64,000 nt of DNA from the IMG/VR virus record IMGVR_UViG_3300043449_002688, positions 64,001 to 128,000 of that record. One strand, 5' to 3'. Below are positions 3,488 to 43,000 of this stretch, one piece after another (the first letter of the stretch is position 1; each line of letters starts with the position of its first letter). This DNA is from a virus. The notes under the pieces were generated by a model. The model was not told the origin of the DNA. It was given only the letters and a program-made list of their open reading frames with translations, and searched no databases. The translations under genes and the position numbers were made by a program.

Positions 3488-6400
3488 TTAAGCCAAGAAC
3501 TTTTTCACATCAGCTCGCATTGTAGCCGTAGTAGCGCCAGAAGTATATTTTACTTCTACGTTAGCTCCGTTAACCGCTGCAGTAAACGAAATTCCAAGAT
3601 CTGCACTATCGGCAAAGGTATCTACAACAGTAACGTCTGTACCGTTTGTAGCTACACGAAGAGTACCGATACGAACAGCACCAGCAGAATCTTTCATTTT
3701 GTAAGTAATTTCAACACCTTCTACGCTTGCATGTGCAAAAGTAAAGCTTGAAATAACTGCATTAGTTTGGCTGGCTGAAAGAGAAACACCATGAATGTAT
3801 TCTTCTTCAACAAAACCTGTTTTAGAGGCTTGCTTAGCCCGCTTAACAGAGTTTTGACCTGCCAACATAATGTCACTAGAAACGCCTTCGATATCGTTTC
3901 CGTTAACATCAAGATCTCCGCCAAGTTGAGGAGCCGCATCGTCAACGACAGCATTTAGCTTGCCATCCAACTGTTCTTGAACGTTTGAGTCAAGGCCAGT
4001 AAGGTAGCCAAGTTCAGTAGCCGTAACTGTAGAAGCAATTACTACTCCGCTTGCATCGCTAACAAGAGCTTTGCTGGCAGTAAGAGCTGCCATCTTAGAG
4101 AAGGCAATGCCTGCGCTAGCAGAAACTTGCGTATTAGTAATCCCACCATCAGCAACTTTAACACCCGTTCCTGATTTAGAAAGTGTAGAACCGTCAAGCT
4201 TTAAGCTAAGTTGAGCTGCAGAAGCTCCCGAATCGCTTGTACCATCAACAGTAAGATGTAAGCCTGAAGAAGTATAAAGATCGATACCAATTTCATCGGT
4301 AGGAAGTTCTTTAATACCTGCGCCAACCATTACGTTGAGAGTATTGCCATCCCACTGCAAGCCTGTACCTGCATTAGTAGCACCAGGACCACCAAATTCT
4401 ACCCACTCTGTTCCGTTGTAATCGTAAGAATGGCCAAAATGCGAAGAATTGTCATTATCAACATAAACCGCTTGGTTATTAACTGGAGCAGTAAAGCTGT
4501 AAACAATCGCACCGACTGTAGCATTAGTGATTTCTGCAATTTGATCGTCTTTACCAAGCAAACCACCTTGGGCAGCACCAATGTTAAGGTACATGCTGAC
4601 ACCAAAACGGTCGCCAATAGCTACTGGACGATCAAACAAATCTATCCAAGTAGATCCGCTCCAATAAAGAGCGTGTCCTGCTTTTCCAGACCAATCGCCT
4701 GTAGGAGAAACGCCGACAATGTAAACCGCTTTTGTAACAGGAATTCCAGGAGGAGTAGACAAGCTATCGTCATACAAGTTTGGATCTGCAATAGGTCGCA
4801 ACCAAACTGCACCACTAATCAATGCATCAACATAAGATTTGCGAACAGCATCGCCATCATTAACTGGAGCTGCTAGGTTGATAGGAAGATAACTTCCACC
4901 AAAATTTAAATCTCCAGTCATCGTGTCGCCAGCTTTGCTGACTTTAGTGCTAATATCAGAAGCTAAGCTTGCTTCAGCAGATTGAGCACGAGATGTTTCA
5001 GAAGAAACTTTAGTATCAAGTGAGCTATCAGCAGATACTCTTGCAGATGCCTCAGAAGAAATGCTAGTTGCCAGCGAAGACTCTGCAGCTTGAGCACGAG
5101 ATACTTCAGTAGAAAGGTCAGAAACTGTAGAAGAAATTGCAGAAGCTAATGAACTGTCAGCAGAAGTACGTACAGATACTTCAGTAGAAAGATCTCCAGC
5201 TACGTTAGCAATTGATCCAGCAAGTGAGCTATCAGCAGAAGTAAGTGCAGATACTTCAGTAGAAATTTTAGCATCTAAACTTGCATCAGCAGAAATTCTT
5301 GCAGAAGCTTCTGCAGAAACTGCAGCAGTTGCTTCAGTAGAAATTAAAGTAGCTAATGAACTTTCAGCAGATAAAGCACGAGATGTTTCAGTAGAAACTT
5401 TGCTATCTAAACTTGCATCAGCAGAGACTCTTGCAGATTCTTCTGAAGAAACGGCAGTAGTTAAACTAGACTCTGCAGCAGAAGCACGAGATGTTTCAGT
5501 AGAAATTTTAGTATCAAGTGAACTATCTGCAGATACTCGTGCAGATGTTTCAGAAGAAACGGCAGTAGTTAAACTAGACTCTGCAGCAGAAGCACGAGAC
5601 GTTTCAGCAGAAACTTTAGAATCTAAGCTTGCATCGGCAGATACTCTTGCAGAAGTTTCAGCAGAAGCCGCAGTAGCTAAGCTAGATTCCGCAGCAGAAG
5701 CACGAGATGTTTCAGTAGAAATTTTAGTATCAAGCGAGCTGTCTGCAGCGATTCGTGCAGATGCTTCAGAAGAAACAGAAGTAGAAACTAAAGTAGCAAG
5801 TGAGCTGTCTGCAGAAGCTCTAACGCTTTCTTCTGTAGAAATGCGAGTAGTTAAGCTAGAGTCAGCAGAAACTCGTGCAGATTCTTCTGCAGAGATCATA
5901 GTAGCTAAGCTTTCGTCTGCAAAAAGTCGTGTAGAAGCTTCAGAAGAAATTTCGCTTGAAAATTTTGTTTCCAAACTTTCATCAGCAAAAATACGATTAG
6001 AAGTTTCCGCAGAAAGTTTAGTACCTAAGCTTTCATCTGCAGAAATTCGTGCAGAGGCTTCAGCAGAAACTGCAGCAGTTGCTTCACTTGAAATAAGAGA
6101 AGCAAGAGAAGCTTCACCTGAAACTCGCGCAGATGCTTCAGCAGAAACTGCAGTAGCTAAGCTAGATTCTGCAGAAGAAGCACGAGATGTTTCAGTAGAA
6201 ATTTTGCTATCTAAACTTGAATCAGCAGAAACTCTAGTAGATGTTTCGCTTGAAACTTTAGAATCAAGTGAAGATTCCGCAGCAGATGCGCGAGAAGTTT
6301 CCGCAGAAATTTTAGTATCAAGTGAACTATCAGCAGCAATTCGTGCAGATGCTTCAGAAGAAATCTCACCACTTACATAGGCTTTAACAGCAGATACTGA

Positions 6401-14463: not shown

Positions 14464-15072
14464 ATGCTAACGGCAATTGGCGATGTAATGCGAAAATGTT
14501 ACGAAAAAGGCTGGATTACTACCAGAGATGGGAATGTAAGTCTGCGAAAAAAGGGAAGTAATTTCCTTTACATTACTCCATCCGGCGTAAGAAAAAATAA
14601 GATTGAAGTTGAAAATATTGTAAAAATAAAAATTGAAAACAACAAATTAGTTATACCTGACGGTAAAACTCCATCAGGCGAACTTCACATGCATTGGCTT
14701 TTACAGTCTGTAAATAATACACAAACCAGAGCAGTTTTGCATGTTCACGCCACAAATATCGTAGCGGCAATGTATGCGGGCTGGAGCTTAATGGAAATTG
14801 CTATGTTTTTTCCAGAAGTTAATAGATACACCAAAGTTGGACCAAATGTGCCTGCTTTACCTGCAACTTCAAAAGAATTAGGGGATGCTACTTTTCAAGC
14901 AATGACCCAATTTAATCCTACAGATTCAAGTATATCTATTACTTATGATATAGTTGGTCAGGCTTATCACGGCGTATGTGCGATAGCTAGACATCCTTGG
15001 GAAGCTTACGAACATGTAGAAAGATTAGATCATATTTGTGAAATAGTATTAAAAAGTGGAGTTAAGCCGTGA
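14464..15072 (+). CDS. class II aldolase/adducin family protein (FucA/MtnB-like)
   Basis: DGNVS, ITPSG, PSGELHMH, VLHVHA, HGV metal-binding motifs. Confidence 0.9.
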   Translation: MLTAIGDVMRKCYEKGWITTRDGNVSLRKKGSNFLYITPSGVRKNKIEVENIVKIKIENNKLVIPDGKTPSGELHMHWLLQSVNNTQTRAVLHVHATNIVAAMYAGWSLMEIAMFFPEVNRYTKVGPNVPALPATSKELGDATFQAMTQFNPTDSSISITYDIVGQAYHGVCAIARHPWEAYEHVERLDHICEIVLKSGVKP

Positions 15073-15860: not shown

Positions 15861-16088
15861 ATGAAGCGAAGCGAAATGGTCCAAGCAATTGCGAGTCAGA
15901 TTATTATTGTTTTAAATGACAATTTTGATGATATTAATGTAGATTGGCAAAAAGCTACAGATATGGCTGATCATATGCTTCGTAATTTAGAGCTGCAAAA
16001 AATCATTATACCTCCTCCTGTCCATTCTTTAACCGTTAACGGCATTTCTCTTAATGGAAAAAATATTTGGGAGCCTGAAGACCTCTAA
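15861..16088 (+). CDS. MKRSEM-family paralogue 1
   Basis: MKRSEM start, PP, NIWEPED end. Confidence 0.75.
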   Translation: MKRSEMVQAIASQIIIVLNDNFDDINVDWQKATDMADHMLRNLELQKIIIPPPVHSLTVNGISLNGKNIWEPEDL

Positions 16089-16099
16089 AAGGAGGCTAT

Positions 16100-16957
16100 A
16101 TGCCTAAGCTTGAGCTTGTTAAAGATAGTGGGATTAAAACCGTCAATATGACTGGCGCTAACTGGAGCGAACTAATTGTCGAATCTTTTAAAAAAAGTGG
16201 TTTTGCAGTTATAACAAATCATGGCATTGATATGCAAAAGGTCAACGACCTTTATGATCAATGGAAAGTTTTCTTTGATTCTGATAAAAAATATGATAAA
16301 AAAACTGTTGATGGAGTTAAAGGATTTTTTCCTTTTAAAAGTGAAAATGCAAAAGGAAATCCAGTTAAAGATTTGAAAGAATTTTACCACGCTTTTTATC
16401 CTTTTAAAAATTTACCAGATGGCATTAGTGAATACTTAACTTTTAACGTAACAGAAGATTTACTTGGTATCGCAAGGCACATTTTATTTATTCTTCAACC
16501 TCATATACCAAAACATCTAGTTGATATTCAAAACGAACCTTTACATAAAATGGCTAGAGGTTCAAATAGCACTTTGCTTAGAATTCTACATTATCCGCCA
16601 GTAATTGAAATGGAAAAAGGAGCTGTTCGAGCCGCCGCCCATGAAGATATTAATTTAATTACTCTGCTTCCTTCTGCAACTCAACCAGGACTAGAGGTAT
16701 TAGATTTGGAAGGTAATTGGCATAAGGTGGAATGTGATCCTGGTTCAATTGTAATTAATGTCGGAGATATGCTGCAGGAAGCCAGCGGAGGGCTTTTTAA
16801 AAGCACAACTCACAGGGTAGTTAATCCAAGTTCAGAAAATATTTCTAGATATTCCATGCCGCTATTTGTCCATCCTAAGCCAAATTCTGTTTTAAGTAAA
16901 AAATATACTGCTGACCAATACCTCAATGAAAGACTAAAGGAAATTGGACTAAAATGA
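16100..16957 (+). CDS. 2-oxoglutarate/Fe(II) oxygenase, isopenicillin-N-synthase-like family
   Basis: GFAVITNHGI, LRILHYPP, HED (HxD), NVGDMLQ, HRV, RYS motifs. Confidence 0.93.
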   Translation: MPKLELVKDSGIKTVNMTGANWSELIVESFKKSGFAVITNHGIDMQKVNDLYDQWKVFFDSDKKYDKKTVDGVKGFFPFKSENAKGNPVKDLKEFYHAFYPFKNLPDGISEYLTFNVTEDLLGIARHILFILQPHIPKHLVDIQNEPLHKMARGSNSTLLRILHYPPVIEMEKGAVRAAAHEDINLITLLPSATQPGLEVLDLEGNWHKVECDPGSIVINVGDMLQEASGGLFKSTTHRVVNPSSENISRYSMPLFVHPKPNSVLSKKYTADQYLNERLKEIGLK

Positions 16958-17163
16958 AAAAAAGCGAAATGGTCAAAATCATTGAAAAAGTAATTAAAAG
17001 TAATGAATTTAGTGTAAGCAAAAAATTAGGTTTTATTAAAAAAAGATCGGATGTAGCTTTAGATATTTTAAAAGCTATAGAAGCTGCTGGAATGCTACCT
17101 CCGACTAAAGCTTTAACGAAAGATAATAAAGAAGTTCTTGTAGCCGTTTGGGAAAAAGAATAA
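16954..17163 (+). CDS. MKRSEM-family paralogue 2
   Basis: MKKSEM start, IEAAGMLPP, VWEKE end. Confidence 0.7.
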   Translation: MKKSEMVKIIEKVIKSNEFSVSKKLGFIKKRSDVALDILKAIEAAGMLPPTKALTKDNKEVLVAVWEKE

Positions 17164-30345: not shown

Positions 30346-31500
30346 TTATTTCACTGAGGTCATTGCATTTTCAATCAAAACTTCATACTTGGAAATATTT
30401 TCAGGATTGTTTATCATATATCTGTAAGCAAATTCTCGTGACTTCTTAAGATACTTTTCATTTGGATGCTCAACGCTATCAAAATGCTTAGCAATATAAT
30501 TTATATGCTCTACAGCAATAACGGAATTGTTTTCTGGATAATACCAGCCTAAATCTTTCATCATAGGGCTGTTGTGAACTACAGGCCAGCCAAGCCAAGC
30601 AGCATCAAGATAAAGATAATTTAATTCGCAACCATTTTGATGGCAAAGTAAAATATCTACGTGTTTATACAGTGACCAAACAACTGGATATCGTGCTTCG
30701 AATGTCATCTTTTTGGCTTTATAAATATCTAGCCCAATAGCAAAGTTAATTAGGTCTTTTTTCTTTTTAACTTCTGCTGCACCAAATACTTTCATGTCGC
30801 CAACTGATTCAGGATATTTTCTGTATAATAATTCCGCAGTAATGATAGGAACTGAGCAAGTTTTAACCATATTTAGGTTGGGCTCCATAGTTGCTATTTT
30901 CTTTGCTTGAACCCCATTTGGCGCATAAACTCCATTGTAATCTGAGTTTTCTTTTTTTAAGACTTCAACGTGATGTTGGATAAACCTTGGGTCCCAGATA
31001 TATGGTCCTTCTAAAACTGGACAATCAAACATTGCTTCAAAAAAGTAACGATCTCGATCATAAAAATGGCCGCTCATCCAAATAGCGCTCAAATGAGGGT
31101 TTCTTGAATAAATCCCACTAGTAGGAAGATTAAATAACATAACCTCGTTAAACATATTAAGTTCTGCTCCAAGAACTTGCTTAACGATTTTTTTACCTTT
31201 GCTTTTAAAGTGAGCATATTCATCTAAATGTAAACTGCCATGACAAACTACAATTAGATCGCACTTTTCTTCAATCTCTTCTAATGGAATTATGTAATCA
31301 GCGTAAGGCTCCCAAGACGTATTTTTAAAACTTTCTTTTGTTACGTTGGGATGGGCATTGATGATATATGCATTGTTGACGTTTTTACATTTAGAATACA
31401 TTTCTCTAAGCAAAATAACATTTTGCCTAATGCCATTGCTAAATAACGAATCTTCTTTAGGGTTTTTAATAATTATTGTAATGCCAACATTATATTTCAT
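30346..31500 (-). CDS. DUF2827-family protein (glycosyltransferase-like)
   Basis: NGIRQNV N-terminus, PYIWDP, EPN.NMVK, HQ....LNYLYLDAAWLGWPVVHNS signature. Confidence 0.75.
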   Translation of the reverse strand: MKYNVGITIIIKNPKEDSLFSNGIRQNVILLREMYSKCKNVNNAYIINAHPNVTKESFKNTSWEPYADYIIPLEEIEEKCDLIVVCHGSLHLDEYAHFKSKGKKIVKQVLGAELNMFNEVMLFNLPTSGIYSRNPHLSAIWMSGHFYDRDRYFFEAMFDCPVLEGPYIWDPRFIQHHVEVLKKENSDYNGVYAPNGVQAKKIATMEPNLNMVKTCSVPIITAELLYRKYPESVGDMKVFGAAEVKKKKDLINFAIGLDIYKAKKMTFEARYPVVWSLYKHVDILLCHQNGCELNYLYLDAAWLGWPVVHNSPMMKDLGWYYPENNSVIAVEHINYIAKHFDSVEHPNEKYLKKSREFAYRYMINNPENISKYEVLIENAMTSVK

Positions 31501-31614
31501 TTTGCCGCCTTAGATTGTGTTTATTTATAATTAATATACTTGCAAAAAGACTTAAAATCAAGTTTAATTGTCTTTAATGAGAATATCTAAAATTGATACA
31601 TTTGTAAAAAATAC

Positions 31615-31642
31615 TTGATTATTTTTGTTAGTATGATATTCT
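31615..31642 (+). promoter_or_regulatory. sigma70-type early promoter
   Basis: TTGATT-16 nt-TATTCT with extended -10 TG; same architecture as the 35.6/36.1 kb repeats. Confidence 0.75.
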
Positions 31643-31670
31643 ATGTTTGTACCTAACCAAAGGAGCTTTT

Positions 31671-31907
31671 ATGTTTAAGGCAATGGAAGATCTAATTGAA
31701 GAAGGTAAAACTGTTGATTTGCGCCTTCGCCCTTCTTATCGTCTTGGTTTCCTTAAAGGTGCAACTATGGTTACAAAAATTCAGCTTGAAACTCTTATGG
31801 AGAAAATCCAAAGAGGTGACAGCAAAGAAAGCCTTGAAAGATATGTGACTTCTATTTTGGCTGATTTGGCTAGGACTGAAGAAGCTGTAGAAAAAATGGG
31901 TTCTTAA
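31671..31907 (+). CDS. hypothetical early protein
   Basis: AAGGAG RBS then ATG 31671. Confidence 0.7.
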   Translation: MFKAMEDLIEEGKTVDLRLRPSYRLGFLKGATMVTKIQLETLMEKIQRGDSKESLERYVTSILADLARTEEAVEKMGS

Positions 31908-31919
31908 AAAGGAGCATGT

Positions 31920-32117
31920 ATGTCACGTATAAAATGTGCCGTATGCAATAAAAACCCAGTTAAAACTAAAATTTCTAAGCACTGGAAAACAAATAAGATT
32001 ATTAAACTTTACGAAGCTACTTGCAATGGCTCTGATTGCGTTAACCAGTATAACGAAGTTTTAGCCGAGCTTTCTTTTCAAGAAGTATATTTTAGTTCGG
32101 AGTCTAACAATGGATAA
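31920..32117 (+). CDS. hypothetical zinc-finger-like protein
   Basis: CAVC and CNGSDC; AGGAG RBS. Confidence 0.6.
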   Translation: MSRIKCAVCNKNPVKTKISKHWKTNKIIKLYEATCNGSDCVNQYNEVLAELSFQEVYFSSESNNG

Positions 32118-32358
32118 CTGCCCTAATTGCAAGTCTAGCTGGATTGGTGAGCCAATTCCTGAAGTCCTTCGTCAGCATTACGGCGATGAAACTCATTGGC
32201 GCAGAGAAATAAACATTGACGGTGGCTACATGGGCATTTATGATGGAATAGTCGCAGTTATATGCCCAGACTGCAAAGAAGAATTTCCCCGAAACGATAG
32301 TTCTTGGGCGTTAGAAATGTTTAAGAAGTACCAAGAGGCTGTAAATGAGAGTAAATAA
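32110..32358 (+). CDS. zinc-ribbon protein
   Basis: CPNC ... CPDC. Confidence 0.65.
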   Translation: MDNCPNCKSSWIGEPIPEVLRQHYGDETHWRREINIDGGYMGIYDGIVAVICPDCKEEFPRNDSSWALEMFKKYQEAVNESK

Positions 32359-32947
32359 AGAAATAATCTCAAAATTAGGTCCATGTAAAAATAGGTTCGA
32401 TAATTATTTAGAATATTACTCTGACTTTGATGGAACCTTACAAGAATTTATTTTGCTAGATAAAATTACTCATAAAGACAAAATTTGGGTAATTACAAAG
32501 CTTTTTGATGACAAGCAAAAAAGTAAATGGGCTATTAAATGTGCTTTTAGCGTTTTATATATATACGAAAAGAGTTTTCCGTCTGACGATAGACCAAGAA
32601 AAGCTATAGAAGCCGCACAGGAATGCCTAAGTAATCCTGCTGCTCGTGCTGCTGCTTATGCTGCTGCTGATGATGCTGCTCGTGCTGCTGCTTATGCTGC
32701 TCGTGCTGCTGCTTATGCTGCTGCTTATGCTGCTTATGCTGCTGCTTATGCTGCTGATGATGATGTTACTCGTGCTGCTCGTGCTGCTGTTGATGCTGCT
32801 CGTGCTGCTGCTTATGCTGCTGCTGATGATGCTGCTCGTGCTGCTGCTTATGCTGCTGATGATGATGTTACTCGTGCTGCTGCTTATGATACGCAAAAAC
32901 AACTTAATTTAAAGTTTGCTATCGAGGTCTTAAATGAAACGAAGTGA
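32345..32947 (+). CDS. Imm5-like (putative immunity) protein with Ala-rich repeat
   Basis: VL.IYEK.FP.DDRPRKAIEAA motif followed by AARAAAYAA repeats. Confidence 0.7.
   Translation: MRVNKEIISKLGPCKNRFDNYLEYYSDFDGTLQEFILLDKITHKDKIWVITKLFDDKQKSKWAIKCAFSVLYIYEKSFPSDDRPRKAIEAAQECLSNPAARAAAYAAADDAARAAAYAARAAAYAAAYAAYAAAYAADDDVTRAARAAVDAARAAAYAAADDAARAAAYAADDDVTRAAAYDTQKQLNLKFAIEVLNETK
32639..32890 (+). repeat. low-complexity (GCT)n-based coding repeat
   Basis: Built only from T-ending codons GCT/CGT/TAT/GAT/GTT/ACT. Confidence 0.95.
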
Positions 32948-33167
32948 AATGATTGACCATATTGTCGCTGAGATGGTAGATGCTGAAGCCAATAGAAAAT
33001 ATAGCAACGAAGCAGGCGAAGCTTATTTTAAGCGTAGAGCGGTTAGCTTACTAGATATGATTGAAGGGTTCGGTATGCTGCCTCCAGAGGTTCCGACTCT
33101 GACTATCAATGGCGTCTCTTTTATAGCTAAAAATATTTGGGAGCCTGAAGATGAAAGCACTAAATGA
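32934..33167 (+). CDS. MKRSEM-family paralogue 3
   Basis: MKRSEM...GMLPP...NIWEPEDE. Confidence 0.8.
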   Translation: MKRSEMIDHIVAEMVDAEANRKYSNEAGEAYFKRRAVSLLDMIEGFGMLPPEVPTLTINGVSFIAKNIWEPEDESTK

Positions 33168-33606
33168 AGCATTGAATGAACTATCTTGGCAATTAAAAAA
33201 AATTTCGCCATCTTTTAGTCAGGAAATTGATAGGTGTTTAACTGATTGGGCAGAAAAGAATTTTGATGTAATGTCTATCACTACGCATTTAAGCCAAGAA
33301 ATGGAGAATAGCGCTGCTGATCCCAGTTCTTTAAAAGCGCATTTATTGCAAAAAGCTCTATACGAGTCTGCAATTCAAATTGGTGCCAAATACGGTTTTG
33401 GGCAAGAAGAAGTAAAAATGCCTTGGAATCATTTAAGTAGGTCTACCGACTATTATGCTACATGGAAAGTAAATCCACATCAATATTCAAAAGAATTGTC
33501 TTTATCATTTGTTGTTTTGAAAAGACATCCTACATCATGGGGTTCTAATGAAAGCACAAGTGATTGGGTTAAAAAAATAGTAGGGGCTAAAAATGAAACG
33601 AAGTGA
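33151..33606 (+). CDS. hypothetical protein within the MKRSEM array
   Basis: Starts at the GGGAGCCTGAAG-ATG junction; ends NETK overlapping the next start. Confidence 0.7.
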   Translation: MKALNEALNELSWQLKKISPSFSQEIDRCLTDWAEKNFDVMSITTHLSQEMENSAADPSSLKAHLLQKALYESAIQIGAKYGFGQEEVKMPWNHLSRSTDYYATWKVNPHQYSKELSLSFVVLKRHPTSWGSNESTSDWVKKIVGAKNETK

Positions 33607-33838
33607 AATGATTGAGCATATTGCCGCTGAGATGGTAGATGCTGAAGCCAATAGAAAATATAGCAACGAACCCAAGCAAGATTATTATTTACGTAAAGCT
33701 ACCGGACTATTAGATATGATTCAGGGATTTGGTATGCTGCCTCCAACTGTAGATGGAATTATTGAAGTTGAAAAGACTAATGATGAGGGCCTAGCCTTAA
33801 AGCTTTGGAGTTGGGAGCCTGAAGATGAAACGAAGTGA
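33593..33838 (+). CDS. MKRSEM-family paralogue 4
   Basis: First 78 bp differ from paralogue 3 at 2 positions; WEPEDETK end. Confidence 0.8.
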   Translation: MKRSEMIEHIAAEMVDAEANRKYSNEPKQDYYLRKATGLLDMIQGFGMLPPTVDGIIEVEKTNDEGLALKLWSWEPEDETK

Positions 33839-34262
33839 GATGGTTACATATCTTCATAATTTATTAAATACGTTTGAAAATTGCAGTCTAGATCGAGCAG
33901 CAGTAGATGAAATCCTAGAAGGATTAGAGAGCATGGGCATGCAACTAGTTGAGCAGTTAGAAGTAGTCCCTTGGGAGCCTGAAGAAGGCTGGGATATATA
34001 CTTACAAAAACAAGACGAAAAAGCCGAAGCTCGTGACTTCCATATCGCACCTAGACTGAATCCTTATAAAAACACCTATGATTATGAAATGACTACTCCC
34101 ATGATAATAGCTAATAGGTATTTATGGGGAGAATCTATTAAAGATCTTGCTAACGCATATAATGTGCCTCGTGAACGAATTAGGCAAATAATAGCAAAAG
34201 AACGGCGTAGATATCAAAATTGGAAAAAAAGCCAACAAGGGTCTGAAGATGAAACGAAGTGA
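33825..34262 (+). CDS. MKRSEM-family paralogue 5 fused to sigma70 region-4-like HTH
   Basis: MKRSEM...WEPEE then SIKDLANAYNVPRERIRQIIAK. Confidence 0.75.
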   Translation: MKRSEMVTYLHNLLNTFENCSLDRAAVDEILEGLESMGMQLVEQLEVVPWEPEEGWDIYLQKQDEKAEARDFHIAPRLNPYKNTYDYEMTTPMIIANRYLWGESIKDLANAYNVPRERIRQIIAKERRRYQNWKKSQQGSEDETK

Positions 34263-34515
34263 AGTAGTAAAACAATTAACCGAACGATTTGAGCAAATGG
34301 ATTTGAATATTACTCCAGGCGTACTGGCAGAAATCGCTATGAGGATTGTTGAAGATGCAGGCATGCAACCTCCAAACATTACACTAAAAGAAATGTTCCC
34401 CGACTCGCCATTGCTTACAGCAGAAAATCATTATTATGGTGTTTGGGAAGAAGAAGATCTAAGCAGCTATCCTTCAATGACTGAAGATATCGACGACGTT
34501 CCTTTAAAAGGATAA
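34249..34515 (+). CDS. MKRSEM-family paralogue 6
   Basis: MKRSEV...EDAGMQPP...VWEEED. Confidence 0.75.
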   Translation: MKRSEVVKQLTERFEQMDLNITPGVLAEIAMRIVEDAGMQPPNITLKEMFPDSPLLTAENHYYGVWEEEDLSSYPSMTEDIDDVPLKG

Positions 34516-34517
34516 TT

Positions 34518-34736
34518 ATGAACAAACGTGAGCAAATTTTACTTGATTATGTTATTCAAAAAAGCTACACTGATCCAGAAGCTCAAGAAGTTTTAAATCA
34601 ATATGATGCTGAAAGAACAGGGCAAGAGTACAGCTCTGTAGCTTTAGTTAATTCCCTTATTAGAGATGGAAACATCAAGCTTGCTGAGCGAATTTTACAG
34701 TGTATGACTGGCGGAGATTATAAATATGAAACTTAA
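34518..34736 (+). CDS. hypothetical protein
   Basis: AAGGA RBS; operon packing. Confidence 0.6.
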   Translation: MNKREQILLDYVIQKSYTDPEAQEVLNQYDAERTGQEYSSVALVNSLIRDGNIKLAERILQCMTGGDYKYET

Positions 34737-34938
34737 AGAGCAATTAGAACTACAAAAAGACATCGAAGTTCCTTGGCATGTTTTTAGGTTTTTTGATGGT
34801 AATACAAAAAAGATTGTTTTGGCTGGAGATCAAGCAAGTTTATCTTCAGAAGGCGATTTTGGCAGCTTACAAGAGCTACAAAAAGCCGTACAATGGTATG
34901 TAGAGCAACTGGGCGGTAAAGTTAAGTGGGATAAATAA
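34726..34938 (+). CDS. hypothetical protein
   Basis: GGAG RBS; overlap with previous gene. Confidence 0.6.
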   Translation: MKLKEQLELQKDIEVPWHVFRFFDGNTKKIVLAGDQASLSSEGDFGSLQELQKAVQWYVEQLGGKVKWDK

Positions 34939-35001
34939 TCCAAGCTAAACATCTAATATTAATAGTTTATTCTATATTGGAATATGGAATAAGAACAGAG
35001 T

Positions 35002-35262
35002 GTGGTAATTAATATGGAAAGCGTACTTTGGCTATTTACAGGTACATTCTATTCTGGAGTATTGTTAACTGTAGGCTTGTTTGTATATAAGATTATTAAA
35101 AATCAACCTTCTAAAAAGCTGTTTATTAATTTCTTAAAAATCTTAGGGATTGGGTTTGTTGCTTCTATGTTTCCTTGGCTTTTGTTTGGATTACTAGGGT
35201 TCCCTTCTGTTTTAGTAGCGAGTATAGCTGTTACCTTTGTCTTTCAAAAAGAACTTTCGTGA
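35002..35262 (+). CDS. multi-TM membrane protein
   Basis: Three hydrophobic segments. Confidence 0.55.
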   Translation: MVINMESVLWLFTGTFYSGVLLTVGLFVYKIIKNQPSKKLFINFLKILGIGFVASMFPWLLFGLLGFPSVLVASIAVTFVFQKELS

Positions 35263-35392
35263 GGCTTTATGGAGCTTTTAATTGTTAGCCCTGTAATTCT
35301 TTTCTGTACTTTAGTTTTAGCAGTTGGCTTTTTAAAGTTAACTGAACATTTCGATTCCGAAGATTAATCTTTTAAAAATTAAAGGCAATAAA

Positions 35393-35617
35393 ATGAAAAC
35401 AAAGTTTTATGCAAAAGATACAAGTAACGGCGATTTTTTTCCAGAACCTAAATTAATCCAAGCCGATATGGGCATTCTTATTGAGTATGGAAACAAAAAA
35501 TTTACTATTCAAGAAGATAATTTCGGCAGGCTCATTCTAACGTCTGTCGGTTCAGGATTAGGTTTGGTTTTAACGCCCAGAAGCTGGAATTCTGTTGTTA
35601 TAAGTTCTGAAGATTAA
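35393..35617 (+). CDS. hypothetical protein
   Basis: ATG with AAGG RBS. Confidence 0.55.
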   Translation: MKTKFYAKDTSNGDFFPEPKLIQADMGILIEYGNKKFTIQEDNFGRLILTSVGSGLGLVLTPRSWNSVVISSED

Positions 35618-35702
35618 ATCTCAAAACAATACATATATAAAAAATACTTGATTATTTTTATAGTCATGGTATTCTGTATTTGTAAGTAGGTAATTAACTG
35701 AA
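35617..35702 (+). repeat. 86-bp direct repeat copy 1 containing an early promoter
   Basis: Identical to 36117-36202 except one base; contains TTGATT-16-TATTCT with TG extension. Confidence 0.9.
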
Positions 35703-35872
35703 ACTAGACATTTTTATTTGATGTGGTGATTAGTGGAGATTTATTTTGGCATCGGTTTTGGGGTTTGGCTGGGTTTATTCTCTTACCGACTTAAAAGAGA
35801 CAAGTTTAAGTATATTATGTACCATGTAACCCCTATAAGTTTTTTGAGGGGTTTTATAGGTGCGGTTTTATT

Positions 35873-36151
35873 TTGGCCCATTTGCATATTTTTAATCCAG
35901 GAGTGATTAGAAAAAATATCCAGCGTCCTCCCTGTCCGTTTAATGATTTTGGTAAAAATCGTAATCCAGAAAATGATATGATCGAAAGTTCTGGTGGTCT
36001 TTGTGGCGTTAAGCCTGGACTTAAAAGCATTGGTTGGGATTTTGAAAATCATATTGACAATTCAAAATTTGAAGTTACTTGCCCTAAATGCAAGAAGAAG
36101 CTCGAAAAGTTAGTTGAATCTCAAAACAATACATATATAAAAAATACTTGA
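35873..36151 (+). CDS. hypothetical Cys-containing protein (start uncertain)
   Basis: LCG...VTCPKC motif; runs into repeat copy 2. Confidence 0.45.
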   Translation: MAHLHIFNPGVIRKNIQRPPCPFNDFGKNRNPENDMIESSGGLCGVKPGLKSIGWDFENHIDNSKFEVTCPKCKKKLEKLVESQNNTYIKNT

Positions 36152-36202
36152 TTATTTTTATAGTCATGGTATTCTGTATTTGTAAGCAGGTAATTAACTG
36201 AA
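36117..36202 (+). repeat. 86-bp direct repeat copy 2 containing an early promoter
   Basis: Exactly 500 bp after copy 1; followed by GGAGG and ATG. Confidence 0.9.
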
Positions 36203-36212
36203 GGAGGACCCA

Positions 36213-36371
36213 ATGATCAAAGTAACTTATAAAAGCAATTATAAAGTTAAAGAAGGTCGTAAGTGGGTCGAAAAAACTTCTCAGTGGGATGAAGTGATTA
36301 AAACTGAAGCCGACGCTAGATTGCGAGCTTTGGCCCTTAACTGGCAAATCGTTAAGGTGGAGTCTGTATGA
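36213..36371 (+). CDS. hypothetical 52-aa early protein (not in ORF track)
   Basis: AAGGAGG RBS; MIKVTYKSNYKVKEGRKW...; ATGA overlap with next gene. Confidence 0.75.
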   Translation: MIKVTYKSNYKVKEGRKWVEKTSQWDEVIKTEADARLRALALNWQIVKVESV

Positions 36372-36634
36372 AAAATTTAGCACAAATGATGCAAAGAGTT
36401 TTTCAAATTAAAAAGGGCGATATTTTAACTAAAGGCGACCTTTATATAATGAATCAAGCAACTGATCAAATTTTGTCCGAATATGATACCTTAAATCCTG
36501 ATTCTTTTGATGATTCACAAAAATTAGACGAATATGATTATTTTTTGGATTATTGTGAAGAAAGTCTAACTGATAGCCTAAAAAAGGCTAGGATTAGAGA
36601 GAGTGGTTTAAAGCTCGTAGTCAATAATTCTTAA
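36368..36634 (+). CDS. hypothetical acidic protein
   Basis: GGAG RBS; ends GLKLVVNNS. Confidence 0.65.
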   Translation: MKNLAQMMQRVFQIKKGDILTKGDLYIMNQATDQILSEYDTLNPDSFDDSQKLDEYDYFLDYCEESLTDSLKKARIRESGLKLVVNNS

Positions 36635-36663
36635 AAAACAATTTTGTCGAATTTGGATATCAT

Positions 36664-36819
36664 ATGAAAAAACAAATTGATAAAAAAGTCAGAGCAAAAG
36701 CTTTAAAGGATTTGACTAAAAACGGCAAAAACCGTTATATGATTGCGCAATTAGACCGTCTCATGTCAGACAAAGAGACCCTAGAAATCCTCAACGCTTT
36801 ATTTGCTGCGACAAATTAA
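36664..36819 (+). CDS. hypothetical 51-aa protein (not in ORF track)
   Basis: MKKQIDKKVRAKALKDL... Confidence 0.5.
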   Translation: MKKQIDKKVRAKALKDLTKNGKNRYMIAQLDRLMSDKETLEILNALFAATN

Positions 36820-36856
36820 TATTGCTTTTTTAATTAAACTTTGACAGAATACACAT

Positions 36857-36933
36857 GGACACTTAGCTTAGCTGGTGAAAGCATCCCGCTCATAACGGGA
36901 GGATCGTAGGTTCGAGTCCTACAGTGTCCACCA
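36857..36933 (+). tRNA. tRNA with CAT anticodon, probably tRNA-Ile2 (lysidine type); elongator Met possible
   Basis: GGACACT/AGTGTCC acceptor with paired G1-C72 (not initiator), TCCCG-CTCATAA-CGGGA, GTAGG-TTCGAGT-CCTAC, ACCA end. Confidence 0.92.
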
Positions 36934-37199
36934 TTTTTCGCTGGAGTTTTTATGCTCTTACTTATGACTTATTTCGTTGCTATCCATACTGCCGCAGTCG
37001 TAATTGATTTGTGTAACAAATCGTTAAATTAAAGAGTTATAGCGCCTCAATTTGAGACATGGAGTTTAAGGATCTTTGCTTTTAAGCCAAAATATAGATC
37101 GAAACTCTAGTTTTAGGTCTATTTTTAAAGAAAATGGAGCGGTCTCTTTAGAAAAGAGCTAATATATAGACTAGTAACAAATGATATTTAGGAGATATT

Positions 37200-37415
37200 A
37201 TGGCAATGGGTATATTAAAATATAAACTGCCGGAAGAAAAATCAGAATTTGAATTGGCTCAAGCTGCCGGAGGTCTTTATTCAGATATTTATACCTTTGA
37301 ACAGTGGCTTCGTTCAGTATGGAAATATTCAGACAAAAAAGAGCTTACAGTTCAAGAAATTCGTGATAAATTTTACGAAGTAATGCAAACGTATCAAAAC
37401 ATAGAAGAAGATTAA
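37200..37415 (+). CDS. hypothetical phage protein
   Basis: AGGAG RBS; L.Y.LPEE..EF..A pattern common in phage ORFs. Confidence 0.7.
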   Translation: MAMGILKYKLPEEKSEFELAQAAGGLYSDIYTFEQWLRSVWKYSDKKELTVQEIRDKFYEVMQTYQNIEED

Positions 37416-37487
37416 AAGGTGTTGATATGAACGGTGTATTGGTGTTATTATTAGTAGTGTTAATCCTCATCTCTCTATCTGACTAAG

Positions 37488-37721
37488 GTGGTAAGTATGA
37501 AGCAAGGTTGGGTTCTTATTAATTGGACTGGCAATCGTTGGGTTACTAATGGGCCAAAAGTTTATGAGGACTTAAACGAAGCTAAATACGAAGCTAAGCA
37601 AGCTGAATTGCCGTACACAAGAACTCTACATATTACTTGGTTAGATTGCCTGGAAGAATGGCCTGAACCTGACTTTTTCCAAAAACTAGAAAAAGAAAGA
37701 TTAATCAATGAAAAAGAATAA
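37488..37721 (+). CDS. hypothetical protein
   Basis: ORF with probable ATG at 37497. Confidence 0.55.
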   Translation: MVSMKQGWVLINWTGNRWVTNGPKVYEDLNEAKYEAKQAELPYTRTLHITWLDCLEEWPEPDFFQKLEKERLINEKE

Positions 37722-37881
37722 TGTTTATTACATGTCTGCTTTTATTAGCCAAACTCGTGAAATGGCAGTAAAACATTCCTCTCTTTTGAAAAACATAAAA
37801 GACTATGCTGAGACTGGCGAAAACAAATATTTGGATAAATCTAAAATGCGCAAACCTAATGGGTCTTTACCTAAGCGCTAA
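37708..37881 (+). CDS. hypothetical 57-aa basic protein (not in ORF track)
   Basis: MKKNNVYYMSAFISQ...; 14-nt overlap with previous gene. Confidence 0.5.
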   Translation: MKKNNVYYMSAFISQTREMAVKHSSLLKNIKDYAETGENKYLDKSKMRKPNGSLPKR

Positions 37882-37939
37882 TATTTATCTTACGCAAATG
37901 CCGTAAGATTTTACGCAATCTTAATAAAACAATTTAATT

Positions 37940-37981
37940 TACAATCCCTTGCAGATGGATTTGCGAGGGTTGTACCCTTTT
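37940..37981 (+). terminator. hairpin / probable terminator
   Basis: TACAA-T-CCCTTGCAGA / TTTGCGAGGG-TTGTA stem with G.U pairs, T run shortly after. Confidence 0.55.
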
Positions 37982-38002
37982 GATACGTTCATAAAAATAT
38001 AT

Positions 38003-38031
38003 TTGCAAAAGTTACACAGCAATCATATACT
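38003..38031 (+). promoter_or_regulatory. sigma70-type promoter
   Basis: TTGCAA-17 nt-TATACT upstream of AGGAGG RBS. Confidence 0.6.
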
Positions 38032-38059
38032 GATTATGCACTAACCAAAAGGAGGAATT

Positions 38060-38341
38060 ATGCGTATCGCTCTAGACAATAATTGCCCAAGCTGTGTAAT
38101 TAAAAAACTAGAAAAAAATGGCCACACTGTAGTTTTATATGCTAGACATGAAATGGATGAAGATTGGGTAAGTACAGCTCTTTCTCTTGGCGCAGATCTA
38201 TTTATATCAAATGATCTAGATATCGTTAATATGCTTGATCGTTGGAATGAATCAGCAGCTTTCATTGAGTTGCCTCAACGAGTATCTGGCTACAGACTTT
38301 CAGAATGGATTGTCAAACAAGTAAAACTTTTGGCTGCATAA
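38060..38341 (+). CDS. PIN-like domain protein (DUF5615/Mut7-C type)
   Basis: MRIALDNNCP..V...L...GH.V....DEDW...A......ISND pattern. Confidence 0.7.
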   Translation: MRIALDNNCPSCVIKKLEKNGHTVVLYARHEMDEDWVSTALSLGADLFISNDLDIVNMLDRWNESAAFIELPQRVSGYRLSEWIVKQVKLLAA

Positions 38342-38436
38342 TAATTGTCTTGTTTTGATATAATTGTAAAAATATAATTGTTTTTGAAATAAAAGTATAA
38401 TAATATAAATAAAGAACACAAACAGAGGAGTTTAGA

Positions 38437-39387
38437 ATGGCACATGAAGTAGAAAATATGATGTACGTTGGTTCACGCCCTTGGCATGGTCTTGGCCGCG
38501 CTTTCGAGGTTCCACCTACGTTAGAAGAGGCTATCATTGCTGCTGGACTCAACTGGAATGTCGGTCTGAGAAAGTTACAGACTGTAGACACTATGGAAGC
38601 TGTTTCAGCTATGGCGACTTACCGAGAGACCGATAACCGTATCCTTGGGGTAGTAGGCCCTAATTATCGCCCGCTGCAGAACTCAGAAGCTTTTGATTTC
38701 TTCCGTCCGTTTATTGATGCTAACGAAGCTTCAATTGAGACTGCAGGCTCTTTGCGTGATGGTCAACGAGTGTTTGTTTTAGCTAAAATTAACCGTGACC
38801 CAATGGTTGTAAAAGGTAATGACGTAGTAGACAAATACGTTCTACTTTCTAACTCACATGATGGCACTTTGGCCGTTAGAGTTGGGTTTACGCCAATCCG
38901 AGTAGTTTGCAATAATACTTTGACTTTGGCTCATAACGACAAAGCATCAAGACTACTTCGCGTCAAGCATAGTGGTAATTTGGTACAAAACTTGGAAAAA
39001 ATCCAAGAAGTAATGAACTTGGCTAACGCTGAGTTTGAAGCTACTGCAGAACAGTACAGAGTTTTGGCTTCTAAGCAAATTAGCTCGCAAGATCTGGAAA
39101 AGTACGTTAAAATCGTATTTGCCCAGAAAAAGACTCTGGAAGAAAAGTCTGTAGAAGAAATTAATTCACGAGTTATTAGCAGCGTACTTCCTTTGTTTGA
39201 GCAAGGTCGTGGAAACGACATGCAAGAGATTAAAGGCACTTACTGGGCTGCGTACAATGCAGTAAATGAATACCTTCAATATGAGCGTGGAGAAACAGAG
39301 CAAAGCCGATTTGACAGCTTGTGGTTTGGTTCTTCTGCACAGTTGAACAAAAAAGCTTTGGAAACAGCTTTGATAATGGCTGCTTAA
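38437..39387 (+). CDS. DUF932-family phage/plasmid protein (TIGR03299-like)
   Basis: MAHEVE, PWHGLG, Y.PLQNSEAFDFF, ETAGSL..G, NSHDG, TPIRVVCNNTL, GTYWAAYNAV.EY. Confidence 0.9.
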   Translation: MAHEVENMMYVGSRPWHGLGRAFEVPPTLEEAIIAAGLNWNVGLRKLQTVDTMEAVSAMATYRETDNRILGVVGPNYRPLQNSEAFDFFRPFIDANEASIETAGSLRDGQRVFVLAKINRDPMVVKGNDVVDKYVLLSNSHDGTLAVRVGFTPIRVVCNNTLTLAHNDKASRLLRVKHSGNLVQNLEKIQEVMNLANAEFEATAEQYRVLASKQISSQDLEKYVKIVFAQKKTLEEKSVEEINSRVISSVLPLFEQGRGNDMQEIKGTYWAAYNAVNEYLQYERGETEQSRFDSLWFGSSAQLNKKALETALIMAA

Positions 39388-39459
39388 TTAATTGATTTTT
39401 AAAATGTGATGGATTACACTAAACCCATGGATGGGTTTTTAATTAATGAGGTAAAAAAA

Positions 39460-39651
39460 ATGAGCGATAAGGTTCCAGATTTTAATCCAGAAGATGCAGT
39501 TGAACTAAGCGAACAGGAATCGGCTGCATTTGGAAATTTAGTTAAACAAATGGATGAAGCTATGAAAGCTGGCGATGATGAGCTTTTGGTATCATTGAGA
39601 GGTCAAATGGACGAGTTCTTCAAGCAAGTTTCTGAAAGCAGAACAAAGTAA
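39460..39651 (+). CDS. small acidic helical protein
   Basis: GAGGT RBS, ATG 39460; QMDEAMKAGDDELLVSLR. Confidence 0.65.
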   Translation: MSDKVPDFNPEDAVELSEQESAAFGNLVKQMDEAMKAGDDELLVSLRGQMDEFFKQVSESRTK

Positions 39652-39697
39652 TATGGCTAAACGCGCCTTTGAAGTTTCTTCTGTTTTCGGAGTTTTC

Positions 39698-39892
39698 ATG
39701 GGGAAAGTTATTTCATTGGATGAGTTTAAACGCCTCAAGGAACGAGGCGAATCTATTCAGAAGCTACTAAAAATAGCCATGGAAGCGGCGGAGAACGGTA
39801 ACGAAGAGCTACTTTTGGCCATGGAAGATGAGCTAGAAGAATTATTAGAATTAGAATTAGAATTAAATTTAATTAAAGACAAGGATGAATAA
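39698..39892 (+). CDS. small acidic helical protein, similar to the preceding one
   Basis: GGAG RBS, ATG 39698; GKVISLDEFK start; AMEAAENGNEELLLAM. Confidence 0.65.
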   Translation: MGKVISLDEFKRLKERGESIQKLLKIAMEAAENGNEELLLAMEDELEELLELELELNLIKDKDE

Positions 39893-39967
39893 CAGGGAGC
39901 AAGGAAGCTCCCGTTGTAAGCATTTAGCAGGACGCTATTTTGAGCAGGACGCTCAGTGCTTATGGTT

Positions 39968-39996
39968 CCCCAGCTCCGTAAAAAGAGCTGGGTTTT
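39968..39996 (+). terminator. intrinsic terminator
   Basis: CCCAGCTC / GAGCTGGG then TTTTT. Confidence 0.85.
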
Positions 39997-40001
39997 TATT
40001 T

Positions 40002-43000
40002 TTAATTTGAAATTAAACTAACTGTAATATCTGCTGTAGGGTCAACAATGTAAGCTTTTTCAAATGCAGCAACTGGTATTAGATCATTTGCAGAAGAGTA
40101 GGACGGAGAAGTTACAGCTACTGCTACAACGCCAGGAATATAGTTGGCTGCAGATACCATTTCGCTGATAGAAACAGATTGACCTACTCCAAGAGCATTA
40201 ACATAACCAGCAATTGCAGCTTTTACGTTTTCTCTAATTTCAGAGAAAGGTACTCCAGTTTTAACTCGAACTGTAAATGCAGCAGTAATTCTACGAACAA
40301 TTGCTTGTTTAATATCAATGTCAGTACCTGCTGCCCTAACACCAGGATAAGTTAATGGATCTGATGAATCGCCATAAATAATACGGTTAAGCTCTTTAAC
40401 AAGACCTTGATAATAAATATAAGAATCTATACCAAAATTAAGCGATTGATTAAATCCAAGCTTTCCAGATACAGACAATGTTGCACCTAAAGAAGCACTG
40501 ACTTTATCCATCAGTTCTGGGGTATTAAAAAGAACTGTAGCTTGAGAAGCATTGGTCGGTCCAACTGCAAAGACTTTTTTGTATAAAGTTATCGGATCTT
40601 TTTCTTCTACATTTACATTTAAATATTCTCCGCCCAATGCAGCAGAAATGCTTTGGTTGAAAGTAGGAGATATGTAAATTCTACTAGGAGTTGGGAATGG
40701 AGTGTTATTATCTGCAGGTCCCAATACTGTATATCTGCCATAGTTTTGTGGACTCAAAATGTTTGTAGCAATATTTAAAACATCTCCTGGCATAACTGAA
40801 TCGTATGAATAAAAATTGATATTGTTTACGTCGCCAACTTGAGCAATTTCTTCTACGCCATTGTCGTTTTTAATCCAGAAGGCATTTCCAAACACTCGAA
40901 CAACTTGGAAAGTTCCTAGATTGCCTTTGTTGAATTCGCGCTTTTCCCAATAAGTGCTATTTGCAGCATCAGGAAGATTGCCAATATTTCCGTTAACGAG
41001 AGAAGCATAGATAGTTCCAGCATAGAAAACTCTTTGATCAACTGCATAAGTAGTAGAATTAGACCAATCAGTTGTAGCGTTTTCTTCTGAAATTCTTACC
41101 CAATCACCTTCTTTTACTCCGCCAGCTAGCAAACCAAGAGAACTTCCAGCGATTGGAATATAAGCCATGAAGTCGCCATGTTTTTCTATCTTAAACTTAA
41201 CAGTAGTATTTAGAGTAATAGTGCGTTTAGTCTGGAAAGTACCAGGACCAGTGATATCGACCCATCCTCCGGCGTTATTTAAAGAAAGGGTTGTTGTGGT
41301 GTCAAACCCAAGAGATTTGTTTTGTCGAACTGTATTTTTTATAGTTACCCATTGATTAGGCAACAAACCTTTTTTAGTTTCAAAAGGTACTTGTATTGCA
41401 CCAAGTTTATTGTTAACTTTTCGGCCTGAGCCTGAAGTAGCGATTTCAACTCTATTAGAAGTTCCACCAGCAATTTGAATGCTGCCAGTTGTACCAAATG
41501 TTTTAGTAGAAATCTGTAATTGCTTTCCGTATTTTGAAAGATTAATATTAGCTACATTTGAAAGACCAGTAACTGATAGTTTATTCCAAAACCTAACAAG
41601 TTGTTCAGATGTAACTGCTACAAGTCTAATTTCTTCGCCAATTTCAGGCTCTGTTACCCAAGATTTTTTAACCTGGAACATTGGGTCATATTGAGCGGCA
41701 GCAAGGTTAGTAGTTTTGATCGAGTTTTCGCCATCGCTCATCATTAAATATTTAGTTGAACCGATTACAGTTCCAACAATAGTATTCGTAGAACTGCTCG
41801 TAGCAATTATTGAAGATTGAGTCTCTATAATGTTTTTAGCTAAAGCAGGGTCATAATAAGAATCTATAACCACATAGCTGCCACTATAAGATTGATAAGA
41901 AGGTGTGGCTATTGTTATCTTAATATCTGCTCCTTTTGGAAGCAGAGTATTTGTTGCAAATCTTACAAATCTAGAGCTAGATCTAATGTAGAGATTTGTA
42001 ACCGTAGTGCTTATGTATCCGCTAGAAAGTAATATATCTTCAGTAGAAAGATCTATTATATCTTCTGTCGTTCCATCAGGGCCGATTTCTGCCAAAGCTC
42101 TATTTGGTAAATAAGTTGCTACATAATCTACTATATCTTGAGCTGTAGTGTTACATGAACCAAACTGTAGGTTTTCGTCAGCTTGCCCGCCTAAACATCT
42201 AGCTAGATAACCTTGATCTACACATTCACCGTAAGTACCTCCAGTAGCCGAAGCATTTCCACCAACTGGGTAAGTAAATGTAAACATGCTTGAGTTGTAA
42301 GTATTTACTGTAAAAGTTCCATTCAAAGATTCAACAGTAGTTTGCCAGTAAGCAGTTGCAGAACTTGGTATGTTGTTTGTGTTGCTTGCCTGTAATGAGA
42401 TATAAGTTTGGCCTAAATATTCAACTAAATCATTAACTCCATAAGTTGTAGCACTACTCCAATCCGCCAAATCACTATTACTAATACGAACAATATCTCC
42501 AACTAATAGACCTACAGTTGAAGCTGTATTAACTGTAACAGTATTACCTACTTTAGTAATAGAAGTAATATTTGTTAGCGCAGAAGGTGCTTTAGATTGG
42601 AAGTCTACTCGTCCAGTGTTAATGCTTCCAGCAGTAGATCCAGGTTTAATGTACTGAAATTGATTTGTTCCCAAAACTCTATAAACTGCAGTTAATCCAT
42701 TATAAGGAGTGCCTGCATTTGAGACTAAAATAACATTTCCTTCGCTTAAATTATGGGCCGTAGAAGTTGTAATAGTTACAAGATTGTTGGAATGAACACC
42801 GTAAGTAATGTTACTTCCAATTCCTAAACTAGGAGCTTTAACTGTGAACTTAGTTGAGTTTACTATACTGTCAATAGCATAAGTTCCATTAATTGGGCTA
42901 TTAATTCCATCAGAAAGTACAGTGCCTGCTAAGCCAATTCTTTGTCCTTTTATAGCATTGTGAGCAGCAGTTGTTTCTACAGTAATAACCCCATTTTTAT

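Follow-up and report, generated by a model that had tools for sequence, protein, structure and literature searches.

An array of small paralogous genes with overlapping, dual-coding ends in a freshwater phage genome

Layout of the array and its junctions

We analysed a 64,000-nucleotide (nt) window, bases 64,001-128,000 of the 154,801-base-pair (bp) IMG/VR virus record IMGVR_UViG_3300043449_002688 (96% complete), which holds an array of four small paralogous genes whose products share an MKRSE start. The record is from an uncultured freshwater-metagenome phage of ~35% GC, with the large virion genes on the minus strand. The array lies in a plus-strand cluster of small, closely packed genes, running from 31502-31531 to 39969-39992, that is probably an early or accessory operon; all positions refer to the window unless a relative is named. 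A preliminary description had reported the four paralogues (here p1, p3, p4 and p5) and two more at 15861 and 16954 (pA and pB), and these were confirmed by the open reading frames (ORFs) and by a whole-genome scan, which returned exactly six paralogues in the 154,801 bp, all within the window. It had taken p4 for a plain paralogue, which holds for the first ~54 codons, while the remainder encodes a Sigma70_r4-like helix-turn-helix (HTH) domain.

The junctions between these genes are built from two short repeated sequences. The first, a 14-mer, is read as the MKRSE start of a family gene and, in another frame, as the ETK-stop end of the gene before it. It occurs exactly at 32934, 33593, 33825 and 34249, with a two-mismatch copy at 15861; when up to two mismatches were allowed, none of 100 shuffled sequences reached five matches (mean 0.55). 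Exactly 14 nt are shared by each of the four array genes with the ORF in front of it. The latter terminates in ETK-stop even when it is unrelated to the family, as is the case for the Imm5_like gene, whose last codons lie inside the start of p1, and for ORF151. Successive overlaps along the array are 14, 17, 14, 14 and 14 nt, all on the same strand. The second sequence, a 15-mer encoding WEPED, is found exactly at 16067, 33137, 33811 and 33971 (0.14 expected). As previously described, its last letter is the A of the ATG at 33151 and 33825, and it supplies a GGAG. This GGAG stands 7 nt upstream of both starts, and GAGG or AGGG motifs stand at an equal distance before the starts at 32934, 33593 and 34249. 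The array thus shares with translationally coupled overlapping genes both a same-strand overlap of stop and start and a Shine-Dalgarno sequence inside the upstream coding sequence. At pA the family start is spelt with synonymous codons (AAG, AGC) that give no out-of-frame TGA, and the gene after pA has its own ribosome-binding site (RBS).

Two segments that do not belong to the family are flanked by copies of junction sequence. ORF151 lies between 12-nt direct repeats (33145-33156 and 33587-33598, 10/12 identical), and the HTH segment of p4 between 11-nt imperfect direct repeats (33975-33985 and 34239-34249, 9/11 identical) that are spaced by 264 nt and in frame. A crossover in either pair of repeats would, going by their sequence, recreate an undivided junction like the one at 33811-33838.

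An alternative genetic code for TGA was considered and dropped, as reading on out of frame past the TGA soon brings further stops (several TGAs and a TAG in the next 60 nt) and the genome encodes only tRNA-Asn and tRNA-Met. We also observed that Met6 is conserved in 37 of 45 family genes and begins 1 nt after the out-of-frame TGA (32945-32951 in the window, likewise in most family genes). This is classic stop-then-start spacing, and some database members begin at Met6; ribosomes finishing the upstream gene might restart at Met6 as well as at Met1.

Table 1. Coordinates of the array, its junctions and flanking features in the window. HMM, hidden Markov model of the family; aa, amino acids.
Feature	Position	Strand	Basis and remarks
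Paralogue pA, 75 aa, 17 kb from array	15861..16088	+	HMM E 3.8e-18; exact 15-mer present
Paralogue pB, 69 aa, MKKSEM...WEKE	16954..17163	+	HMM E 5.4e-15; ATGA overlap with preceding 2OG-Fe(II) oxygenase gene
Promoter-like site, head of plus-strand cluster	31502..31531	+	10/12 to sigma-70 consensus; consensus match only, frequency not above shuffles
CPNC zinc-ribbon small gene	32110..32358	+	ORF; weak zinc-ribbon Pfam matches; 3' end overlaps next gene by 14 nt
Imm5_like gene, Ala/Tyr-rich repeat, unrelated to family	32345..32947	+	PF21805 E 9.8e-8, 32.4 bits against cut-off of 25
Paralogue p1, 77 aa, mosaic (5' part p3-like, 3' part pA-like)	32934..33167	+	HMM E 2.9e-29
p1 3' junction	33137..33156	+	WEPED codons hold GGAG (33140-33143), 7-nt spacer, ORF151 ATG (33151); left copy of 12-nt direct repeat
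ORF151, unrelated inserted gene	33151..33606	+	No Pfam or PHROG match; starts in p1 tail (17-nt overlap), ends ETK-stop in p3 start (14-nt overlap)
Paralogue p3, 81 aa	33593..33838	+	HMM E 1.7e-30
Undivided family-to-family junction ("empty site")	33811..33838	+	p3 WEPEDETK-stop in one frame; GGAG, spacer and p4 MKRSE in another
p4, whole ORF, fusion gene	33825..34262	+	HMM E 7.7e-7 over whole ORF
p4 family domain, 54 codons, ends WEPEE	33825..33986	+	HMM and alignment
p4 in-frame extension, Sigma70_r4-like HTH	33987..34262	+	PF04545 E 1.2e-5, 25.1 bits against cut-off of 24.1; ends SEDETK-stop in p5 start
Paralogue p5, 88 aa, last of array	34249..34515	+	HMM E 1.8e-13; longer acidic tail, no embedded downstream start
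Terminator-like hairpin, end of plus-strand cluster	39969..39992	+	Promoter/terminator scan

The protein family and codon use at its ends

A word-indexed search returned 29 metagenomic relatives of these proteins, none of them named, and at E<=1e-3 a full profile search reached 2,474 representatives of clusters built at 50% identity. The members are small acidic phage proteins of 60-95 residues, encoded in metagenomic phage contigs and often as arrays. Alignments show a conserved N-terminal part (MKRSEM to LLDMIEGFGMLPP; ~50 residues from MKRSEM to GMLPP), followed by 10-45 hypervariable residues and, at the end, a WEPEDE tail. An AlphaFold2 model (pLDDT, the predicted local distance difference test score, of 82) places helices at residues 3-21 and 28-45, forming a helical hairpin, together with a small beta hairpin. 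Foldseek gave no match to this fold in PDB or BFVD, and name searches found nothing above noise in Pfam (134 members included), PHROGs, PDB profiles or the ESM Atlas. Given the cluster count and these empty name and fold searches, the family is abundant, phage-borne and undescribed in the libraries searched. Our guess is that the protein is a host-takeover or anti-defence binder whose target is set by the variable stretch. One metagenomic member, P0077 (172 aa), consists of two family domains fused, as expected on loss of a junction stop; other C-terminal extensions are found in P0098 (235 aa) and P0067 (125 aa).

Junctions were surveyed across 27 IMG/VR loci (numbered with an L below) and the window, in which the family HMM found 51 family ORFs, 48 of them distinct. 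Arrays are present in L005 (six copies), L007, L009, L011 and L012. The upstream gene ends at an AGT-GA stop made by Ser4-Glu5, giving the 14-nt overlap, in 20 of 47 cases and at ATGA in 12, so that 32/47 have an overlap of either kind; 13 have a gap. At the other end, a downstream ATG is embedded in the family tail of 30/48 genes, with none embedded in the remaining 18. These family-wide stop and start positions indicate that both foreign frames meet a stop in the head of the gene, and that its tail provides an RBS and a start.

Codon use at these positions is strongly biased. Ser4 is encoded by AGT in 41 of 45 genes, compared with a background of 19% of Ser codons and 59% of AGY codons at the same loci (binomial 7e-7). 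It is AGT at this position that creates the out-of-frame TGA, and the neighbouring Lys, Arg and Glu codons vary. The codon was found in 30 of the 31 genes with an overlapping upstream gene, versus 9 of the 13 with a gap. The Glu codon after Trp is GAG, which makes GGAG, in 29/40 genes versus a background of 24% (1e-10), and it is more frequent with an embedded downstream ATG (22/27) than without one (7/13); the second Glu is at background. Because AGT and GAG are biased in this way while the codons of the equally conserved GMLPP motif vary freely, with every synonymous codon in use, protein constraint alone does not explain the junction DNA. The proposal of a self-contained junction of RBS, start and stop is thus supported by the codon counts, and in many phage contigs such junctions link a family gene to an unrelated one. 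The exact 27-nt family-to-family junction has no match in metagenome contigs. Its 19-nt form occurs at 18 loci, of which six are real family junctions (L044, L049, L050, L054, L056 and duplicates), and the rest are chance matches with no family gene.

Mosaics, gene order and competing explanations

Several comparisons point to exchange of segments among family genes, with breakpoints in the paralogue mosaics at the conserved patches. The genes p1 and p3 are identical in 73 of their first 75 nt and then diverge sharply, and the last ~45 nt of p1 resemble pA, 17 kb away. In the nearest relative, L005, the segment at ~3651-4015 is repeated 928 nt downstream at ~91% identity; it runs from GMLPP through a CPNC gene to the next MKRSEM, and the N-terminal halves of the two family genes involved are unrelated. 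L050 shows a similar pattern. Junctions are more alike within genomes (identity 0.87) than between them (0.81; permutation p 0.01), whereas protein bodies are not (0.26 vs 0.25). Tails also recur on genes outside the family: two unrelated genes of L050 end with the family-tail variant of L049 (26/27 nt), and an unrelated gene of L009 ends with that phage's own WEDEE variant.

Gene order, which the preliminary description had proposed to compare between strains, is not fixed among relatives. The window and L005 have Imm5_like, CPNC, family and ORF72 genes in common, but these differ in order and number, and ORF151 and the HTH segment are found in the window and not in L005. The L005 proteins are only 45-75% identical to those of the window, so single events cannot be mapped. 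With the 565-residue virion protein as query, all relatives were at most 48% identical and none was at strain level, and searches of INPHARED with the array DNA and protein gave no matches. We also noted that L005 26-166, a homologue of the window gene at 14464-15072, is only ~2.6 kb from the family array of that phage, while in the window the pA/pB region and the main array lie on either side of a ~14-kb block of minus-strand virion genes. This amounts to a large rearrangement between relatives.

The array consists of paralogues of a large family with dual-coding ends, and we consider it probable that it has grown and been reshuffled by recombination at conserved patches. At the 5' end, ATGA stops one alternative frame and AGT-GA the other, such that the upstream gene terminates within 14 nt of the family start, with the Shine-Dalgarno sequence of the family gene in its last codons. 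At the 3' end, the Trp-Glu codons spell GGAG and the Asp-Glu codons give the ATG of the next gene. Recombination among three stretches of conserved DNA, namely the 5' and 3' junctions and the GMLPP core, would then grow and reshuffle arrays. Since the family tail doubles as the 5' leader of the next copy, a crossover in the tail would always regenerate two intact, coupled genes, and an unrelated gene or domain enclosed by two family genes would come to be flanked by junction direct repeats of 7-12 nt. Because their end codons double as stop and as RBS and start, the genes would remain coupled in translation even as family copies and foreign genes change places. The layout, the codon bias, the mosaics, the differing gene order and the recurrent junction variants are observed here, and from them we infer translational coupling itself, recombination as their cause and any movement of cassettes.

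The main challenge to this reading is that the array may be an ordinary tandem one, with junction identity a by-product of conserved termini and of phage early-gene compaction and coupling, and with no role in recombination or gene gain. We regard this as possible, yet clearly less likely. The "junctions" are, after all, the ends of one gene family, and much of their conservation is ordinary protein conservation plus dual-coding constraint: MKRSEM and WEPEDE are conserved as protein family-wide, across the 2,474 clusters, which leaves little of the junction identity to be specially explained. At pA and within p4 the 15-mer has no downstream start to serve and is kept all the same, which suggests that the WEPE tail serves the protein too. 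AGT is kept in 11 of 12 genes whose upstream neighbour stops at ATGA, where a second stop is unneeded, and overlaps of 8-17 nt are general in the cluster, occurring also between non-family genes here and in L005. Stops arise soon in AT-rich sequence read out of frame, so an upstream gene that loses its stop will end nearby. The codon counts are phylogenetically non-independent, but the AGT and GAG contrasts are drawn within one set of genes. In array genomes the ATG behind non-family upstream genes has GAAG before it in 3/11 cases, as against 0/13 elsewhere (15/770 ORF starts overall), but this spacer contrast between array and single-copy loci is weak alone (Fisher p 0.08). Some breakpoints are intragenic, at GMLPP or codon ~25, and not at the termini alone, and direct repeats of 7-12 nt are short for homologous recombination. 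Finally, no excision or deletion joint and no circle was seen at the junctions in the contigs of the single sequencing run that holds the phage, contigs being prone to drop rare variants. What counts against an ordinary array is that synonymous and spacer positions are kept while the equally conserved GMLPP is saturated, that junctions and not gene bodies are closer within genomes, that identity changes sharply at conserved patches, and that the tails of unrelated genes copy the local family-tail variant.

A stronger version of the recombination reading, whose core the preliminary description had put forward, is an integrase-free translational cassette system, in which portable junctions would let recombination within a genome or between co-infecting phages excise and insert cassettes, perhaps as small circles, with products in frame and coupled. 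Its integrase-free part stands, as a profile search with positive controls found no integrase (PF00589) in the 154.8-kb genome. The constrained junction DNA, the mosaics, the variable gene order and the copied tails also speak for it, while insertion, excision or a circle was not seen in the contigs of that run. The preliminary interpretation is supported in part, and we hold this full form of it to be doubtful. The single joint found in the contigs of the run lies in the Ala/Tyr repeat of the Imm5_like gene, not at a junction. Loose contig ends at 33812-33830 match L005-like phages of the same sample and not variants of this phage, which indicates that phages sharing the junction co-occur in one sample.

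A less likely explanation is that family genes form two-gene modules, the family protein serving throughout as adaptor, chaperone or inhibitor and the gene after it as the variable partner, so that whole pairs duplicate and the junctions ensure obligatory co-translation. Family and non-family genes alternate strictly in L005 and L050, the L005 duplication takes a family C-terminal half together with a CPNC gene, and one paralogue is fused to an HTH domain, all of which fit such modules. However, family genes are joined directly to each other in the window (p3-p4-p5) and in L049, L006, L007, L008 and L014, the downstream partners are very diverse and none is embedded for 18 of the 48 family genes, and two L050 copies that have their variable region in common are followed by different genes. 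We therefore think this improbable, although the alternation at L050 1587-2825 and L005 2800-5331, where the non-family genes are zinc ribbons and orphans, could mean two-gene functional modules there. Precursors of ribosomally synthesised and modified peptides (with a conserved leader, hypervariable core and conserved follower) or targets of a diversity-generating retroelement would match the conserved ~50-residue N-terminal part, hypervariable middle and fixed tail, and a 2OG-Fe(II) oxygenase lies between pA and pB, but this is very improbable given that no modifying enzyme is beside the main array (its neighbours are Imm5_like, zinc-ribbon, HTH and orphan genes), that a profile search found no reverse transcriptase (PF00078) in the genome, that the N-terminal part is predicted as a folded helical hairpin, and that the variable regions differ by length and segment exchange rather than adenine-specific substitutions.

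The CPNC gene at 32110-32358 is 51-61% identical to L005 3754-4014, L005 4682-4942 and L012 1997-2242, making it a resident of such arrays in relatives. The Imm5_like gene has a homologue at L005 2999-3565 (60% identity). ORF151 has one relative only in IMG/VR, a weak and partial one. A coding repeat rich in Ala, Tyr, Asp and Arg occupies 32599-32938 of the Imm5_like gene, with 9- and 12-nt periodicity and 20 copies in register, and recurs in homologues in two other phages (L005 3319-3507 and L008 4705-5232). Its k-mer depth in the source metagenome is ~20x that of its flanks (~790 vs 34), which indicates that many other genomes of the sample carry the repeat. Apart from this repeat, the junctions are the only repeats found in the array region, and a promoter and terminator scan of 31400-40100 found none at the junctions, with counts that do not exceed those of shuffled sequences. 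At the far end of the same plus-strand cluster lie a DUF932 gene (38437-39387, E 3.4e-58) and a small, weakly PIN-like ORF (38060-38341). The 2OG-Fe(II) oxygenase gene (16100-16957; PF03171 E 3.6e-18, plus DIOX_N) sits exactly between pA and pB, and the suggestion that the family's Pro-Pro motif might be its target is purely speculative.

Significance and comparison with known systems

Plastic regions of large phages are a source of host-takeover and anti-defence genes, and how genes enter them without breaking expression is poorly understood. The array offers a concrete and widespread case, with thousands of metagenomic clusters, of coding ends that appear shaped down to synonymous codons to end any upstream gene and launch any downstream one. 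Frequent recombination at these ends, if borne out, would constitute a second guided route of gene shuffling beside a transcriptional one, the promoter-early stem-loop (PeSL) route, as well as a natural design for plug-in, translationally coupled gene cassettes. An abundant, structurally novel family of small proteins with a hypervariable segment is also flagged for functional study.

Overlaps of stop and start of the ATGA type, with the RBS in the upstream gene, are established in phage and bacterial operons. The array resembles such translationally coupled genes in both respects, and its whole cluster is packed in this way. It is unlike them in that the module is a conserved and portable end of one family, provides stops in both alternative frames and is conserved at the codon level among hundreds of diverged members. 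The linker or boundary-sequence model of phage modular evolution, reportedly due to Susskind and Botstein, is said to treat short conserved border sequences as preferred crossovers that keep recombinants viable. That model concerns allele exchange between phages at intergenic borders, while the array has patches of a multi-copy family within one genome, including the internal GMLPP. Integron cassettes are likewise promoterless small genes behind one upstream promoter with a repeated junction between them, but here there is no integrase, there are no structured attC-type sites and the repeats are coding.

Polymorphic toxin and immunity loci (Zhang et al. 2012, PMC3482391) have a conserved N-terminal part and a variable C-terminal part, the latter varied through recombination with cassettes close by. 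The family has a similar division, and an Imm5_like gene lies in the array. In contrast to those loci, the array has no toxin, secretion or pre-toxin domain, encodes proteins of 60-95 residues, is phage-encoded and follows a translational junction logic.

PeSL cassettes of the T4-type phages RB49 and phi1 are intergenic elements of ~100 bp with a promoter and a terminator, for which mini-circles were shown experimentally (Arbiol et al. 2010, PMC2839356). As seems to be the case in the array, small orphan genes of a plastic region are bordered by short repeats that carry expression signals, with no integrase, and recombination between repeats would delete or insert a gene and leave a working signal behind. 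The array repeats differ in being 14-27 nt long, placed inside coding sequence in two frames, translational in function (stop, RBS and start) and formed by the ends of one family, with no promoter or terminator repeats at the junctions and no circles in the contigs of the one run. The array is not itself a PeSL, given that element's intergenic position, length of ~100 bp, role in transcription and demonstrated mini-circles. By analogy, it is best regarded as a translational-level counterpart of PeSL shuffling, which is the nearest described system.

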